A DNA stretch of 64,000 nt from Candidatus Aenigmatarchaeota archaeon (lineage in GTDB: Archaea; Aenigmatarchaeota; Aenigmatarchaeia; CG10238-14; SpSt-28). A program made the position numbers. How positions within the stretch are numbered: the stretch's first letter is position 1; each line of letters opens with the position of its first letter. The stretch lies in contig JAVVFY010000003.1 in NCBI GenBank assembly GCA_032249395.1, forward strand, positions 32,001 to 96,000, written 5' to 3'. Below are positions 36,001-42,000 of this stretch, one piece after another.

Positions 36001-39000
36001 GGCGATCTACCAATAATGGTGAAATCTAAATTTTGCCCTTTATCGAGAATGAGTAGAAAAGAGCTTATAGAAATAGGAGAAGATCCTGATGATCCAGGAG
36101 GATATTTTATCATAAATGGTACGGAAAGAATTCTAATGCTTGTAGAAGAAATAGCAACTGACAGAATTATAGTAGAAAAAACTAAAGATTCTTCTGTTCC
36201 ACAAATAGCAAGAATACATTCTGAAAGGGAAGGATTTGTACAAAAACACTTAATAGAAAGAAAAAGAACTGGAGAAATTTATATAACATTTGCTAACATT
36301 CGTAGGATTCCTATAGTAATAATACTAAAGGCTTTAGGATTAGAAAAGGACAAAGAAATCTTAGAAGCCATATCTTTAGATGAAAGAATTCAAGAGTCAT
36401 TTTTAATTAACATTTTAGAATTTCCGATAAAAAATGGAGAAGAGGCTATAGATGAATTGGGTAAATACCTTAGGATTCCTCAAAAATCTATGAGAAAAAA
36501 ACAAGCAATAAGAATGATAGATAAGTATTTGCTACCTCATATTGGACAGGAGCCGGAAAATAGACTAGCCAAAGCTATGTTTATAGCCAAAGCTATAGAA
36601 AAAATTTTAAAACTTCACTTGGGCGAAATAGAAGAAGATGATGTAGATCACTATGCAAATAAGAGAATTAAAATGGCTGGAGACTTGTTGGAATTGCTCT
36701 TAAGGTCTATACTTTTGGGAAAATGGGGATTAATAGTTAGAATGAACTACAATTATCAAAAACTTGTAAAAAGAGGAAAATTGCCTCCCTTGCAAGCTGT
36801 AGTAGAAAACGCAATATTAACTAACCAAATAGTTTCAGCTATGGCCGTTGGAAGTTGGATAGGTGGAAGAACTGGGGTAACTCAGAGGCTTGAAAGAAGT
36901 AGTTGGAACAAAACTATAACTCATATGAGAAATATTGTCTCACCACTTTCTTCTACCCAAGAACATTTCGAAGCAAGAGAACTTCACCCTACTCATTTTG
37001 GTAAACTATGCGTAACTCAAACGCCAGAAGGAGCAAATATTGGTTTGAGAAAGTATCTTGCTATTAGTGCGACGATAACTCCTAAGATAGACAAAAAAGA
37101 TATAACTCCAATACTAGAGTTACTAGATTCTGTAAAGGTGAAAAAATGACAAGGGCTAGCGTTTTTCTAGATGGTGAATATTTGGGTGAAATTGAAAACC
37201 CTAAAGAATTCGTAGAAAGCGTTAGAAAAATGAGAAGGGAGGGAAAAATACCACCATTTGTTAATATTGCATACCATGCTCACTTAAATGAAGTAAGAAT
37301 TTTAACTTCGCCAGGAAGAGTAGTTAGACCTCTGATAGTTGTAGAAAATGGAGTTCCAAAATTAACAAAAGATATATTAGAAAAAGTGAGAAGGGGTGAA
37401 TTGAGTTTTTCTGATCTAGTGAAAAATGGAATTATTGAGTATTTGGATGCGGAAGAGGAGGAAAATGCTTATATTGCAATAAGACCTGAAGAAGTAACCA
37501 AAGAACACACACATTTAGAAATAGATCCTGCAGTAATTCTTGGTTTTTCCGCCCAATTTGTTCCTTATCCAGAATTTAATAGGGGAGATAGAGTTAATTA
37601 TGGAGCTAAAATGGGGGATCAATCTATAGGTATATTTGCGGCAAACTTTCTTAATAGAGTTGACAGCAAATCAAGCGTATTAGTTTACCCGCAAAAGCCG
37701 CTAGTACAGACATACATACATAAAATTCTAGACTATACAGAAAACTATCCCCATGGTGTTAATGTTGTAATAGCAGTAGCCACTTATGAAGGATACAATA
37801 TTGAAGATGCTATCGTTTTAAATAAGTCTTCGGTAGAAAGAGGTATGTTTTGGAGCTATATGTATAGAACTTATGAGACGGAAGAAAAAAGATATCTTGG
37901 TGGTCAAGAAGATATAATTGGAATACCACAACCAGGAATAAGAGGTTATGGTGGTGAGGAGGAATACAAACACCTTCCAGAAGATGGGATAGTAAATCCA
38001 GAAACCGAAGTACATTCAGATCAAGTTCTTATAGGAAAAACTTCTCCTCTAAGATTCTTAGGCAAAGCCGATATATTTTTAGCAGGAATGGAAAACTTAA
38101 GAGAAACGTCTGTAAGAGTAAGGCATGGTGATAAAGGAATAGTTGATAGAGTTTATTTAACTCAAACAACCGATGGTACAAAATTAGTTAAAGTTGTTGT
38201 TAGAGACTTGAAAAAACCAGAAATAGGCGATAAATTTGCTTCTAGACATGGACAAAAAGGAGTAATAGGGTTAGTGGTTCCTCATGAAGACATGCCATTT
38301 ACAGAAAGTGGTATTGTTCCTGATATTATTTTCAATCCTCATGGACTGCCATCTAGAATGACAGTTGGTCAACTTCTAGAAATTTTAGCAGGAAAAGTAG
38401 CGGCAATATCTGGAAGATACATAGATGCCCCAGCTTTTAATCCTACCAATGAAGAAGAGTTGAAAAACGTTCTGAAGAAATTAGGATTTGAAGAAAGTGG
38501 GAAAGAGATAATGTATGATGGCAAAACGGGAAGAAAATTCGAAGCTAAGATTTTCATAGGCTGTTCTTTCTATATGAAGTTGGATCACCTAGTTTCAAAT
38601 AAACTACAATCAAGAGCAAGAGGTCCTGTAACTTTATTAACGAAACAACCAACAGAAGGTAGAAGCAAAGAAGGTGGTTTAAGATTGGGTGAAATGGAAA
38701 AGGATTGTTTATTGGCTCATGGTGCTGTGCTAACTTTAAAAGAAAGATTCGATTCAGATAGAATTATTCTACCTGTTTGTAAGAAATGTGGAATGGTAGC
38801 TGTTCACGAAAAACCAAAAAACAGATATTTCTGTCCTGTATGCAAAGATGATGCAGAAATAACAAATGTTGAGATGACTCACGCTTTCAAATTACTATTG
38901 GATGAACTAAAGAGCTTGCTAATATATCCTAAGTTGGTTATTAACGATGAAGGAAAGATAAGCAAAATAGAATTCAGTATTCTAGATCCTGATACTATAA

Positions 39001-42000
39001 GAAAGATGGCGTTCGCTGATATAACTAAAATTGATATCTACGATGAAGAAGGATACCCTATAGAAGGAGGTGTTATGGATCCTAGATTAGGAACAGTAGA
39101 ACCTGGAATAAGATGTAGGGTTTGTGGAGGAAATGTTGGAGAGTGTCTAGGTCATTTTGGTAAAGTAGAACTTGTAAAACCTGTTATTCATCCTCACTAT
39201 GTCAAGTTTTTGCATTTTGTATTAAAAATAACATGTAGAAAATGCGGAAAACTTTTGATAGATGAGGAGACAAAAAAGAAAGGTAAGATATCGTGGAAAG
39301 AAATAGAGAAACTTGCGTTGAAAAAATGCCCATATTGTAATACTCAACAAAAAGAAATTAAATTAATTAAGCCATACATATTTATAGAAGGTAACAAAGT
39401 ATTAAATCAGGAGGAGATTAGAGAGAGGCTAGAGAAAATACCAAATGAGGACCTGAAGATACTTAATCTTAAAATAAGACCTGAATGGTTGATTCTAACA
39501 GTACTTCCAATACCTCCAGTAACTATAAGACCATCCATAACATTAGAAACTGGAGAAAGAAGCGAAGATGACTTAACCCATAAGCTGGTAGAGATAGTAA
39601 GAATTAACGACAGGCTTAGAGAAAATTTGGAGTTGGGAGCACCACAATTCTTATTGAACGATTTATGGGAGCTTCTACAATATCATGTAGCAACTTATTT
39701 TGATAATGAATTGTCTGGAGTTCCGCCAGCGAGACATAGATCTGGTAGGGTTTTAAAAACTCTAAGCCAAAGATTGAAAACGAAAGAAGGAAGATTTAGA
39801 GGAAACCTACTTGGAAAGAGAGTTAACTTCTGTGCAAGAACAGTTATTTCCCCCGACCCTAAAATTAAAATAAATGAAGTTGGTGTTCCACAAATAATAG
39901 CTAAAGATATAACAATTCCTATAAGAGTAGATGAGAGAAATATAGAAGAGTGTAGAAAACTTGTTTTGAACGGTCCTAATTGTTGGCCTGGTGCAAACTA
40001 CGTTATTAGACCTGATGGAAAGAGAAAAAGAATCTTAGAAACAAACAAAGAGGAAATAGCAAAAGAACTTGATGTTGGTTATATAGTTGAAAGACATTTA
40101 ATGGACGGAGATATTGTTATTTTTAACAGACAGCCAAGCCTGCATAGAATGAGCATGATGGCTCATAGAGTAAGAGTAATGCCATACCTAACTTTTAGAT
40201 TAAATGTAGCTGTCTGTCCGCCATACAATGCCGACTTTGATGGAGATGAGATGAACTTACATGTTCCACAAACAGAAGAAGCCAGAAGTGAAATAGATAT
40301 CCTTGCTTCGGTGGAAAAAAACATAAGAAGCCCGAGATACTCTGCTCCCATAATAGGACCAATAAGGGATGGGATAACTGGTCTATACTTGTTAACTAAA
40401 GACGGTAACAAGCTTAGCAGAAGAGATGCAATTAGATTGATAAGAAGCGTAGATACTGATGTAGAAATTCCGGAAAAGGATGAATTCACCGGTAAGGAAG
40501 TCTTTAGTATTCTACTACCTAAAGATTTCTCTATCGAATACAAAGGAAAAACAGGAATTGTAAAAATAGAAAATGGTAAACTTATAAAAGGTGAATTAGA
40601 AAAAAACGGAATAAGCGCGGACGGAGGAAAAATAATAGACAAAATAGAAAAATATTATGGAAGAGTGTTCGCTAGCGAATTCATTTATAAAATTCAGCTT
40701 TTAGGGATTAACTATCTGGACATGAAAGGATTTTCTCTTGGGATTACGGATTTGAGTATAGAAAAAAGAGTAAAAGAGGAGATACAGAAGATTATAGAAC
40801 AAACAGAAAGCGATATTAATAAAATGATTGAAAAATTCAACAAAGGAGAGCTAATTCCTATGATAGGGAGAACTACCGAGGAAACTTTAGAAAATATGAT
40901 AAAAGAAAGAATAGCTATGTGTTTGAATGAAAGCATGAGTGTATTAGAAAGAGGAATTAAAGAATCTCCAGCTTTAGATATGGTAAAATGCGGTGCTAGA
41001 GGAAGTTTAGTAAATCTCTTACAAATAGTTGGGTTAATTGGTCAGGAAATGATAATGGGCGAAAGAATAGAAAAAGGATATTATAAGAGGACTTTTCCTC
41101 ATTTTAAGATGAATGATATAAGTCCGGCATCCAAAGGTTTTGTTGCGCATGCTTTTAAAGATGGTTTAAACGTATTTGAATTCTACTTCGATAATATGAA
41201 CTCCAGAGAAAGTCTTATGGATAAAAGTTTAAAAACAAGGCACTCTGGTTATATGGAGAGAAGATTAGTCGGCGCTCTTCAAGATTTAAAAATCGCATAC
41301 GACGGAACAATAAGAGACGCCGCAAATAGAATAATTCAATTCGTTCCATTCGAGGATGGTCTAGACCCATCGAAAATTACTAGAGAAGGAATAAATGTTA
41401 GAGAAATAGCAAGGAGGATCTTCAATGCTTCCTAAAAAGATTTTAGAAGAGGTGGAAAAGGTCTCTAAAGAACTAAAACTTAATGAAGAAGATAAAAATA
41501 AATTGATAAAAGAAGTGGAAAAAGAATACCTTAATATGATGGCCGAACCTGGTGAAGCTGTAGGTATTTTGGCTGCTCAAAGTATTTCTGAACCAGCTAC
41601 TCAACTTACCATGAGAACTTATCACCTTGCTGGAGCTGCAGGAGTTAAGATTACATTTGGTTTACCAAGACTGATAGAGATATTCGATGCAAAAAGAAAC
41701 ATAGAAACCCCGATGATGACGATATATTTGAAAAAAGAATTTAACACTAAGGAAGAGGCGGAAAAAGTGGCATTTAAAATAGTTGAGAAGAGAGTTATAG
41801 ACCTATCTAGTTATATATCAATGGATATAGGAGAAACTTCCATTATTGTAGAACCTTCTGACAAAAGAAAAGCGGAAAAGATAGAAACGGCAATAAAAGA
41901 ATATTTAGGTAAGAAAGCAGAAGTAAGCACTAAAGAAGGCAAAATAATTGTTCGAGTCAAAGAGAAGGAAGTAAGTCTTTCAGATTTACAAAAAATAAAA

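Follow-up and report, generated by a model that had tools for sequence, protein, structure and literature searches.

An in-frame fusion of RNA polymerase subunits B' and A' in Aenigmatarchaeota

In the 64,000-nt stretch of Aenigmatarchaeota DNA that we analysed (the window), RNA polymerase (RNAP) subunits B' and A' occupy one reading frame. This raises the question whether the locus is a true fusion gene or two abutting genes and, if it is fused, how the join arose and what it means for the enzyme. Coordinates are positions in the window, not in the whole contig (Table 1). The frame begins with ATG and runs for 1429 codons with no internal stop, as seen in the ORF listing and in the translation; for window DNA of 34% G+C, an open frame of this length is far beyond chance. 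Both halves exceeded the curated cut-offs of the respective NCBIfam equivalogs. TIGR03670 (rpoB_arch) matched residues 6-601 with 883.3 bits (cut-off 811), taking up profile positions 1-597 of 599, and the subunit A' models NF006336 (1121 bits, cut-off 819) and TIGR02390 (1090.2 bits, cut-off 1042.55) matched residues 603-1427. In the translated A' moiety, zinc-binding cysteines are visible together with the active-site motif NADFDGD (as YNADFDGDEMN), which we take to be the Mg-binding motif. Alignments with solved archaeal A' chains start at residue 602 of the protein (chain residue 3), and the solved B chains of archaea stop 2-3 residues beyond the aligned N600. The genome contains one copy of the fused gene. 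These data identify the locus as a true in-frame B'-A' fusion gene and not two abutting genes, confirming the preliminary description, which had read it as one uninterrupted 1429-aa polypeptide. The domain order given there, with Rpb2 domains 4-7 ending at residue 598 and Rpb1_1 starting at 604, was reproduced exactly.

The surrounding genes follow the usual operon order: rpoH, B'', [B'-A'], A'', L30e, NusA, S12, S7. Upstream, rpoB'' scored 536.4 bits against NF007175 (subunit B'', cut-off 355), and its stop end shares 4 nt with the beginning of the fused ORF. Downstream, the 5' end of rpoA'' overlaps the 3' end of the fusion by 11 nt; this gene matched TIGR02389 with 406.1 bits (E 1.3e-121), slightly under the cut-off of 420.65. 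The product of the fused gene would be a single polypeptide of ~160 kDa that leads from the C-terminal half of B (Rpo2C) into the N-terminal two thirds of A (Rpo1N). Because B' and A' are encoded as one polypeptide, the polymerase would be built from B'', B'-A', A'' and the small subunits.

Table 1. Features of the RNAP cluster in the window and domains of the fused protein
Feature	Position	Strand	Size or residues	Basis
rpoH (Rpo5), first in RNAP cluster	35414..35659	+		Pfam RNA_pol_Rpb5_C, E 4.9e-25
rpoB'' (Rpo2N), N-terminal half of subunit B	35659..37149	+	496 aa	Pfam Rpb2_1/2/3
Fused ORF B'-A' (Rpo2C::Rpo1N)	37146..41435	+	1429 aa + stop codon	Single ORF; Pfam order; both NCBIfam equivalogs above cut-off
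B' moiety	37146..38939	+	1-598	Rpb2 domains 4-7; last strand ...LLIYPKLV
Pfam domains, B' part			Rpb2_4 6-67; Rpb2_5 88-121; Rpb2_6 136-508; Rpb2_7 510-598	Pfam
Junction (I-N-D-E-G-K)	38940..38957	+	599-604	DNA read directly; set against 57 unfused and 44 other fused junctions
A' moiety	38958..41432	+	605-1429	Rpb1 domains 1-5N; first strand ISKIEFSIL
Pfam domains, A' part			Rpb1_1 604-888; Rpb1_2 890-1055; Rpb1_3 1059-1203; Rpb1_4 1228-1333; Rpb1_5 (N-terminal part) 1340-1405	Pfam
rpoA'' (Rpo1C), separate gene	41425..42561	+	378 aa	Pfam Rpb1_5, profile positions 66-263

Residues 505-960 were modelled with AF2 from an alignment of 54 sequences; the junction was predicted as strand, five-residue turn and strand with a pLDDT of 88-90, within a predicted, not solved, structure whose overall mean pLDDT is only 76. 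The model matched PDB entry 3QQC, chain A, with 1.9 Å over 368 columns (TM 0.80, normalised to the target), and the sequence of this chain aligned with the natural fusion in one stretch over the junction (E 1.1e-59). According to Martinez-Rucobo et al. (2011, PMC3094117), 3QQC chain A is an engineered P. furiosus clamp, rClamp, composed of B 1053-1115, a short linker and A' 3-318, which folded, bound Spt4/5 and was crystallised. Its topology is the same as that of the natural protein and its join is near-identical ('...RPKLNLSEGGKVIGSIEF' in rClamp, '...YPKLVINDEGK-ISKIEF' in the natural fusion). However, rClamp was assembled in the laboratory from three fragments, 436 residues in all, for crystallography and not as a polymerase, whereas the natural protein comprises complete B' and A'. 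rClamp is experimental proof that the C-terminus of B and the N-terminus of A' can be tied with the clamp fold undisturbed, and the archaeal protein represents the natural counterpart of what structural biologists had to engineer. Our modelling indicates that the solved clamp structure can accommodate the fused junction and that the join is probably a β-hairpin. In the clamp, the β-strand that ends B' (LIYPKLV) and the one that opens A' (ISKIEFSI) would lie side by side, linked by a five-residue turn derived from the old B' tail and A' head. The fusion would be tolerated because the two termini already abut.

The ancestry of the join was approached through unfused relatives (59 genomes of the order were fetched and two dropped for irregular alignments, leaving 57). 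A' starts with ATG in 57/57 of them, the distance from B' stop to A' ATG is -4 to +4 nt in 55, and GGAG/GAGG occurs at most 18 nt upstream of the A' start in 45. B' tail and A' head together measure 11-14 aa in 56 of the 57 (mode 12), and the 45 fused genomes have 11-13 aa over the equivalent part. The junction of the window occupies the position of the old B' tail, stop codon and A' start. By this comparison, B' and A' are joined end to end with no added linker. We propose that the genes of the unfused relatives are translationally coupled, with the Shine-Dalgarno motif placed within the last B' codons (K-E-E). With the B' stop and the A' ATG no more than 4 nt apart or overlapping (ATGA), a stop-codon substitution or an indel of 1-2 nt would suffice to fuse them. 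Across the phylum, the fusion has been gained or reversed many times. In the genus studied here it is fixed; the former A' start codon and its ribosome-binding motif have eroded, so that A' would be made solely within the fusion.

The distribution of the fusion was determined by a six-frame search with residues 500-700. In the order CG10238-14, the search covered 118 genomes, and 45 of these, including the present one, gave a single match that crosses the junction without a stop, the open frames having 1420-1502 codons. A full-length match holding one or two stops was found in nine genomes and no match in seven; the remaining genomes gave two matches each, except G037, with a half match at a contig end. 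All nine species of the genus are fused, and the earlier counts (45 of 118 genomes, all eight other species of the genus) were thereby reproduced. Genera g2 and g3 are likewise fused throughout (8/8), and fused and unfused states are mixed within g9, g14, g20, g29, g33, g34, g35 and g41. The nine matches with stops had been taken for broken fusions. They are instead normal two-gene loci in which A' lies in the frame of B', each with its own stop and ATG and, in eight of nine cases, with GGAG/GAGG within ~20 nt upstream of the ATG. An alternative genetic code or stop read-through at these in-frame junctions was considered and rejected: each of the three stop codons (TAA, TAG, TGA) is represented, and every locus retains its own ATG. 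Extending the search to the phylum Aenigmatarchaeota (NCBI name; the class scope comprises the identical 371 genomes) revealed a stop-free junction in 63 of 371 species-level genomes. The fusion is therefore not confined to CG10238-14: it occurs in 18 further genomes of the phylum, of which 14 were fetched and all confirmed. Eight of the fusions outside the order are complete frames of 1916-1941 aa that correspond to an unsplit B joined to A'.

We consider it likely that B' and A' form one chain, joined end to end, and that this fusion arose from coupled genes, recurrently and with near-neutral effect. The single chain would be active, its catalysis unchanged, and the tether would impose 1:1 synthesis and pre-assemble the clamp. 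The fusion is probably near-neutral, although its fixation in the nine species of the genus and in several clades could equally mean an advantage. An adaptive origin, with the clamp tether stabilising or speeding RNAP assembly in a reduced-genome hot-spring symbiont, is possible but rather unlikely. The small genome (0.75 Mb at 89.5% completeness) and the fixation in whole genera are in line with it, as are the 20 runs listed with part or all of this DNA, every one of which is labelled hot-spring metagenome. However, sister species within certain genera differ in state, a pattern more readily explained by drift at a site where mutation is easy than by strong selection. Moreover, Helicobacter cells are reportedly viable after splitting of their natural β-β' fusion, which also counts against adaptation. 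We are similarly doubtful of the broader proposition that the B/A' boundary is an evolutionary toggle in Aenigmatarchaeota, at which tethering has been repeatedly selected to aid polymerase assembly in a reduced-genome symbiont; were it true, RNAP split and fusion states would be unreliable 'rare genomic changes' for deep archaeal phylogeny.

It is less probable still that the ORF is fused and the cell nonetheless ends up with separate B' and A', either by internal initiation of A' or by proteolysis at the junction. Cleavage is conceivable, and traces of the old start signals persist in some fused genes: an in-frame Met is retained at the old start in 11 of 45, GGAG/GAGG in 13 and both in three, so some young fusions might still initiate internally. 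In the window junction, however, direct reading of the DNA revealed no in-frame Met or ATG and no GGAG/GAGG nearby, and the sole in-frame TTG encodes Leu597, which is conserved in B' and precedes the turn. Without a stop codon, free B' could not be made. As to proteolysis, a junction of 5-6 residues is too short to hold an intein or protease module, no Pfam match falls there, and the model suggests a tight, confidently predicted β-turn and not an exposed loop.

As to the recurrent origin of the fusion, we mapped its states on a gene tree of the same two RNAP genes with the junction columns removed. This is not a species tree, it is unrooted with respect to the direction of gain or loss, and its outgroup rows were picked for being fused. 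Only fused versus unfused was scored; the frame sub-labels (0, +1, +2) of the 120-row tree are partly wrong (G070 and G067 were marked out of frame and G058 in frame). This tree requires at least 15 changes of state, at least 11 of them forced by well-supported branches, compared to a mean of 40.3 after shuffling; none of 500 shuffles came as low, pointing to strong clustering. The genus forms one clade with support of 100. Within the order, the 45 fused genomes fall in ~13 clusters, and the minimum is 14 changes on FastTree and IQ-TREE trees alike. Forcing the 45 into one clade made the tree 1828 log-likelihood units worse (AU p = 3.3e-33). The fusion had been described as a lineage trait, which holds for the genus and fails for the order. 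A single ancient fusion, inherited vertically throughout the order with the unfused genomes being secondary or unrelated, would account for the strong clustering and for the uniformly fused genera, but is very unlikely in view of the rejected single clade, the number of changes required and the mixed states inside eight genera. Furthermore, junction peptides vary between clades, some with the old A' Met, and fused forms occur in other orders too, on an unsplit-B background.

The accuracy of the junction is supported by independent sequences, from four of the 20 listed runs. In a different study (X3), a contig of 25.8 kb covers positions 38400-39600 with one substitution and no indels, and a 422-nt contig from a second study (X4) crosses the junction with no differences; these are two independent hot-spring DNA assemblies with an identical junction. 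Two RNA-library contigs (X18, 162 nt; X19, 310 nt, 92% identity) also cross the junction ungapped, with differences there that are silent or change Ser to Gly; both cover parts of the stretch only, are expected for any operon transcript and may stem from library DNA. The exact protein is present in NCBI, JGI, ENA and Logan, 13 of 15 listed cluster members are 1429 aa long, and every one of the 120 best protein clusters (90% identity) crosses the junction. A representative library at 50% identity gave a single close fused representative (P0002) and understates the spread of the fusion, since clustering at that level merges the conserved RNAP proteins into a small number of groups; the spread was judged instead from the 90% library and from the genome searches. 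An artefact of assembly or sequencing, with the stop codon lost or an indel introduced at this A-rich boundary, where small indels would shift the frame, is exceedingly improbable given the identical junctions from two other studies, the 90% clusters and the spread over the phylum. The fusion was thus rightly held not to be an assembly error, as the independent assemblies and the nine fused species of the genus attest.

Likening the protein to the β-β' fusions of Helicobacter and Wolbachia is fair as a functional analogy. In the Helicobacteraceae/Wolbachia β::β' fusions (rpoB-rpoC), which appear in a table of PMC2919709 and among the citations in PMC7483510, the C-terminus of the second-largest subunit is likewise joined to the N-terminus of the largest in a single ORF, and going by the title of Zakharova et al., the mutational setting of the bacterial fusion would equal the archaeal one. 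The archaeal protein belongs to another domain of life and another protein family, and it missed the cut-offs of the bacterial fusion equivalogs by far (NF007172, PRK09603, 345.9 vs 5372; NF011417, PRK14844, 343.3 vs 4632). It would function like the bacterial fusions but stands outside their family. Moreover, both archaeal parent subunits are already split, so what the fusion yields is a middle portion, B'-A', with B'' and A'' remaining separate on either side; set beside the bacterial case, the archaeal fusion has also undergone at least 14 changes of state in a single order. In yeast, Orf6 of the cytoplasmic plasmid pGKL2 also places the second-largest before the largest subunit in one chain. 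As described in PMC2919709, it is a drastically reduced protein of 982 aa with about half deleted and with junction inserts, whereas the archaeal fusion retains every domain with nothing added. The A'-A'' 'secondary fusion' of Pacearchaeota (Da Cunha et al., 2017, PMC5484517; Nottebaum and Weinzierl, 2021, PMC8204694) is another altered gene partitioning of large RNAP subunits in DPANN, but it restores a single subunit A and does not join two different subunits.

As in the preliminary description, our literature searches found no report of an archaeal B'-A' fusion; a Caliditerrarchaeota preprint mentions gene fusion solely as a clustering precaution. As far as these searches show, the archaeal B'-A' fusion is new, its bacterial β-β' kin being already known, and it constitutes the first natural tether of two catalytic subunits in an archaeal (Pol II-like) RNAP. 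Fused and unfused sister species offer a ready-made system for the effect of tethering on RNAP assembly, and the frequency of split and fusion events at the B/A' boundary bears on its use as a phylogenetic marker. NCBI and JGI name the fused proteins only "subunit A'" or "subunit B", and no archaeal B/A' fusion model was among the matches in NCBIfam release 20. Marker-gene and completeness pipelines may therefore score B' as absent or as present twice in these genomes.

The phylum displays almost every possible cut of these genes, namely B''|B'|A'|A'', B''|B'-A'|A'', B-A'|A'' and B|A. Subunit A is unsplit in the Aenigmatarchaeota genome G228, and an archaeal-type sequence of 2214 aa from an unplaced source (P0032) is a complete single-chain B-A.

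The B' and A' subunits of RNA polymerase (the C-terminal half of subunit B and the first part of subunit A) are encoded here by a single open reading frame, whose position is listed with those of its neighbors in the table. Pfam assigned Rpb2 domains 4-7 to residues 6-598 of the fused ORF, and Rpb1 domains 1-4 plus the N-terminal portion of domain 5 to residues 604-1405. Curated NCBI equivalog models of both subunits were passed by one and the same protein: TIGR03670 (archaeal subunit B, C-terminal part; residues 6-601) scored 883.3 bits against a cut-off of 811, NF006336 (subunit A'; residues 603-1427) 1121 bits against 819, and TIGR02390 (subunit A'; residues 604-1413) 1090.2 bits against 1042.55. 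The single frame, the domain order and the passing of both NCBIfam equivalogs thus bear out the preliminary description of an uninterrupted 1429-aa ORF. Because the translation shows the NADFDGD motif as well as zinc-binding cysteines on either side of the junction, the fused gene looks functional. It is single-copy in the genome, which is 89.5% complete at 0.75 Mb in 25 contigs, and lies in a classical archaeal cluster comprising rpoH, rpoB'', B'-A', rpoA'', L30e, a NusA-type KH protein, S12, S7, EF-2 and EF-1α. The GTPase domain of the 1226-aa EF-2 is interrupted by an intein (Pfam Intein_splicing, residues 44-525) with a LAGLIDADG homing-endonuclease domain (LAGLIDADG_3, 371-448). Both GC skew and AT skew switch sign at about 34 kb of the window, where, at the start of the RNA polymerase/ribosomal cluster, plus-strand genes take over from minus-strand ones; GC skew is negative at 28-34 kb, mostly negative further upstream, and positive at 34-54 kb.

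Positions in the window of the fused ORF and its neighbors, and fetched loci (L) from other genomes (G) of the phylum with unsplit B fused to A'
Feature	Position	Strand	Remarks
rpoH	35414-35659		first in RNA polymerase cluster
rpoB''	35659-37149		ATGA overlap with start of fused ORF
B'-A' (fused ORF)	37146-41435	+	single ATG-started frame, 1429 codons, without internal stop
rpoA''	41425-42561		after the fusion
EF-2	44251-47931	+	contains intein
Unsplit B fused to A', other orders			L106 (G119), L107 (G137), L108 (G195), L109 (G171)
Unsplit B fused to A', other orders			L114 (G129), L115 (G124), L120 (G128), L121 (G122)

Part or all of the stretch was found in 20 listed sequencing runs, all labeled hot-spring metagenome, and contigs of four of them were compared with the window. 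A 25.8-kb contig of run X3, from a study that is not one of the window's two possible sources, covers 38400-39600; it is free of indels and has a single substitution, which lies far from the junction, and a 422-nt contig of X4, from yet another study, covers the junction without differences. With the same junction in contigs of two other studies, the earlier statement that the fusion is not an assembly error held. Two metatranscriptome libraries yielded contigs crossing the junction without gaps, one of 162 nt (X18) and one of 310 nt with 92% identity (X19), which are evidence of presence in an RNA library and no more. As the substitutions at the X19 junction are silent or Ser to Gly, the frame is kept in this relative too. 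The exact 1429-aa protein is recorded at NCBI, JGI, ENA and Logan, and all of the best 120 protein clusters at 90% identity span the junction; their source names give only "subunit A'" or "subunit B" of Candidatus Aenigmatarchaeota.

We then searched the 118 genomes of the order CG10238-14 in six frames with residues 500-700 of the fused protein. In 45 genomes a single match without stops was obtained, the frames measuring 1420-1502 codons; nine had one match with one or two stops, seven had no match and the remainder had two matches; the order counts given previously were thereby reproduced. Extending the search to the class, which equals the whole phylum in the genome collection used (371 genomes), gave a single in-frame match in 107 genomes, 63 without and 44 with stops. 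The fusion is wider than the order, with 18 of the 63 stop-free genomes lying outside it. Frames were checked for 14 of these 18 loci: eight are complete with 1916-1941 aa, three complete with 1420-1443 aa, and three cut by contig ends. According to Pfam, the 1916-1941-aa frames (see table) consist of unsplit B (Rpb2 domains 1-7) followed by A' (Rpb1 domains 1-5N), and they resemble the bacterial β-β' fusion more than the B'-A' gene of the window does.

The junction and 1.5 kb to either side were compared among 104 genomes belonging to the order, the unfused set comprising 57 genomes after two with irregular alignments were left out. In these 57, B' ends in "...IYPK-x-x-x-K/G-E-E-stop" and A' starts with "M-K/L-V-D/E-K/R-I-E-F", invariably at an ATG codon. 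For 55 of the 57, the stop and this ATG are separated by -4 to +4 nt, and GGAG/GAGG occurs within the last B' codons, at most 18 nt upstream of the ATG, in 45. Because stop and ATG are nearly adjacent and the motif lies inside the end of B', the two genes are translationally coupled in unfused relatives. In such an arrangement, a stop-codon substitution or an indel of 1-2 nt would suffice to join B' to A'. In the 45 fused genomes, 11-13 residues lie between the conserved anchors that flank the junction, and B' tail plus A' head amount to 11-14 residues in 56 of 57 unfused genomes and 17 in the other; since these spans match, the fusion added nothing in the way of a linker. The nine full-length matches that had been described as broken by stops are not decayed fusions but ordinary two-gene loci sharing a frame: A' lies in the B' frame, every one has a stop and an ATG of its own, and eight have GGAG/GAGG no more than about 20 nt ahead of the ATG. 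In one of the nine, genome G067 (L055, G067:C66:630-4214), the B' frame shifts near the conserved 'RSKEGG' motif, owing either to a frameshift in the gene or to an error of assembly, and its B'/A' junction has an ordinary in-frame stop followed by ATG.

The fused or unfused state has changed repeatedly. On a FastTree phylogeny of B' and A' sequences from which the junction columns had been removed (120 rows, 1174 columns), at least 15 changes are needed, at least 11 of them forced by well-supported branches, as compared to a mean of 40.3 for shuffled states (none of 500 shuffles was as low). Within the order, FastTree (104 rows) required 14 changes, as did IQ-TREE under LG+G4 (100 rows after dropping four partial ones, plus four outgroups). 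For the best tree with all 45 fused rows together, the log-likelihood was 1828 units lower (AU p = 3.3e-33). Because the tree is that of the genes concerned, neither mis-binning of MAGs nor the passing of a fused gene from one lineage to another can explain the pattern. The notion of a lineage trait therefore stands for the genus of the window, a single fused clade with support 100, but not for the order, with its at least 14 changes and the rejection of a single fused group. As to direction, gains of the fusion are the simpler reading, since B and A' genes are known as separate in archaea outside Aenigmatarchaeota, junction peptides vary between clades, and the old A' Met persists in several fused junctions. 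In Aenigmatarchaeota, fusion thus has a mutational hot spot at the B/A' boundary.

Start signals decay once the genes are fused. Among the 45 fused genomes, 11 retain an in-frame Met, 13 GGAG/GAGG and three both; the search window was larger in fused than in unfused genes, yet fewer signals were found. Reversion would be easy for young fusions that still have both Met and Shine-Dalgarno motif. The junction of the window's genus reads "INDEGK" or a close variant, with an in-frame Met in none of the species and GGAG/GAGG still present in four of nine. From the window's fused chain, of about 160 kDa as predicted, trypsin would release LVINDEGK across the junction, with ISK next. Given a junction devoid of in-frame Met, the A' subunit of this organism should be producible only as part of the fusion.

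A PDB sequence search with residues 540-720 returned as best match 3QQC chain A (E 1.1e-59), aligned in one stretch over the junction. According to passages of Martinez-Rucobo et al. 2011 (PMC3094117), 3QQC is a recombinant Pyrococcus furiosus clamp in which a short Gly/Ala/Ser linker ties B 1053-1115 to A' 3-318 and a second linker leads on to A'' 334-371; this construct was soluble, bound Spt4/5 and was crystallised. Compared with the natural "...PKLVINDEGK-ISKIEF", its engineered join, "...PKLNLSEGGKVIGSIEF", has one residue more. The position aligned with N600 is followed by 2-3 further residues in solved archaeal B chains, and the one aligned with I605 is preceded by 2-7 residues in solved A' chains. 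We modeled residues 505-960 with AlphaFold2 from an alignment of 54 natural fused sequences (mean pLDDT 76, pTM 0.72; junction pLDDT 88-90), obtaining a β-hairpin at the junction (strand 593-599, turn 600-604, strand 605-612). The model fits 3QQC_A at 1.9 Å over 368 columns (TM 0.80 normalised to target). An inter-subunit strand pair of the clamp would thus become a predicted hairpin through the fusion, as judged from this prediction and the engineered structure.

The two largest subunits are known to be tethered in the β::β' fusion of Helicobacteraceae and Wolbachia (table of PMC2919709; PMC7483510), in the reduced Rpb2::Rpb1-like Orf6 of plasmid pGKL2 and in a distant prophage protein of Corynebacterium (both PMC2919709); archaea appear in the table of PMC2919709 only with A'+A'' and B or B'+B''. 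The B'-A' protein fails the NCBIfam models of the bacterial fusion by a wide margin, so that its proposed role as archaeal counterpart holds as an analogue outside the bacterial family. Large-subunit changes reported for archaea in passages of PMC5484517 and PMC8204694 are A/A'+A'' splits and an A'-A'' re-fusion in Pacearchaeota, and "fusion" or "fused" is absent from passages of a 2026 review on archaeal RNA polymerase evolution (PMC13257274). As before, full-text searches, which did not extend to subscription journals or supplementary files, turned up no account of either a B-A' or a B'-A' fusion. The B'-A' fusion is real and reproducible, and apparently undescribed; it is an archaeal form of a known phenomenon, its structural feasibility foreshadowed by an engineered construct. 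Its recurrence is the more interesting result, contradicting the working assumption of rarity in RNA polymerase history found in passages of PMC5484517, and natural fused/unfused pairs are available for experiments; reconstitution of recombinant RNA polymerase has been reported for Methanocaldococcus and Nanoarchaeum.

Other subunit arrangements were met as well. Genome G228 (L122, G228:C18:3000-12500, minus strand) has an unsplit A, with A'+A'' in one 1188-aa frame and a complete Rpb1 domain 5. Nothing but one TAG stands between this frame and a 1102-aa B in the same frame; a complete single-chain B-A would be one substitution away. Two divergent proteins, about 35% identical to the junction region, both have Rpb2 running into Rpb1. 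P0032 is encoded on one 18.7-kb Logan contig; its 2214 aa form a complete Rpb2::Rpb1 chain, with archaeal Rpo2 as best solved relatives (E 2.3e-113). P0127 (1665 aa; 10 contigs, longest 79 kb) ends inside Rpb1 domain 2 and is closest to eukaryotic RPB2 (E 1.3e-177).
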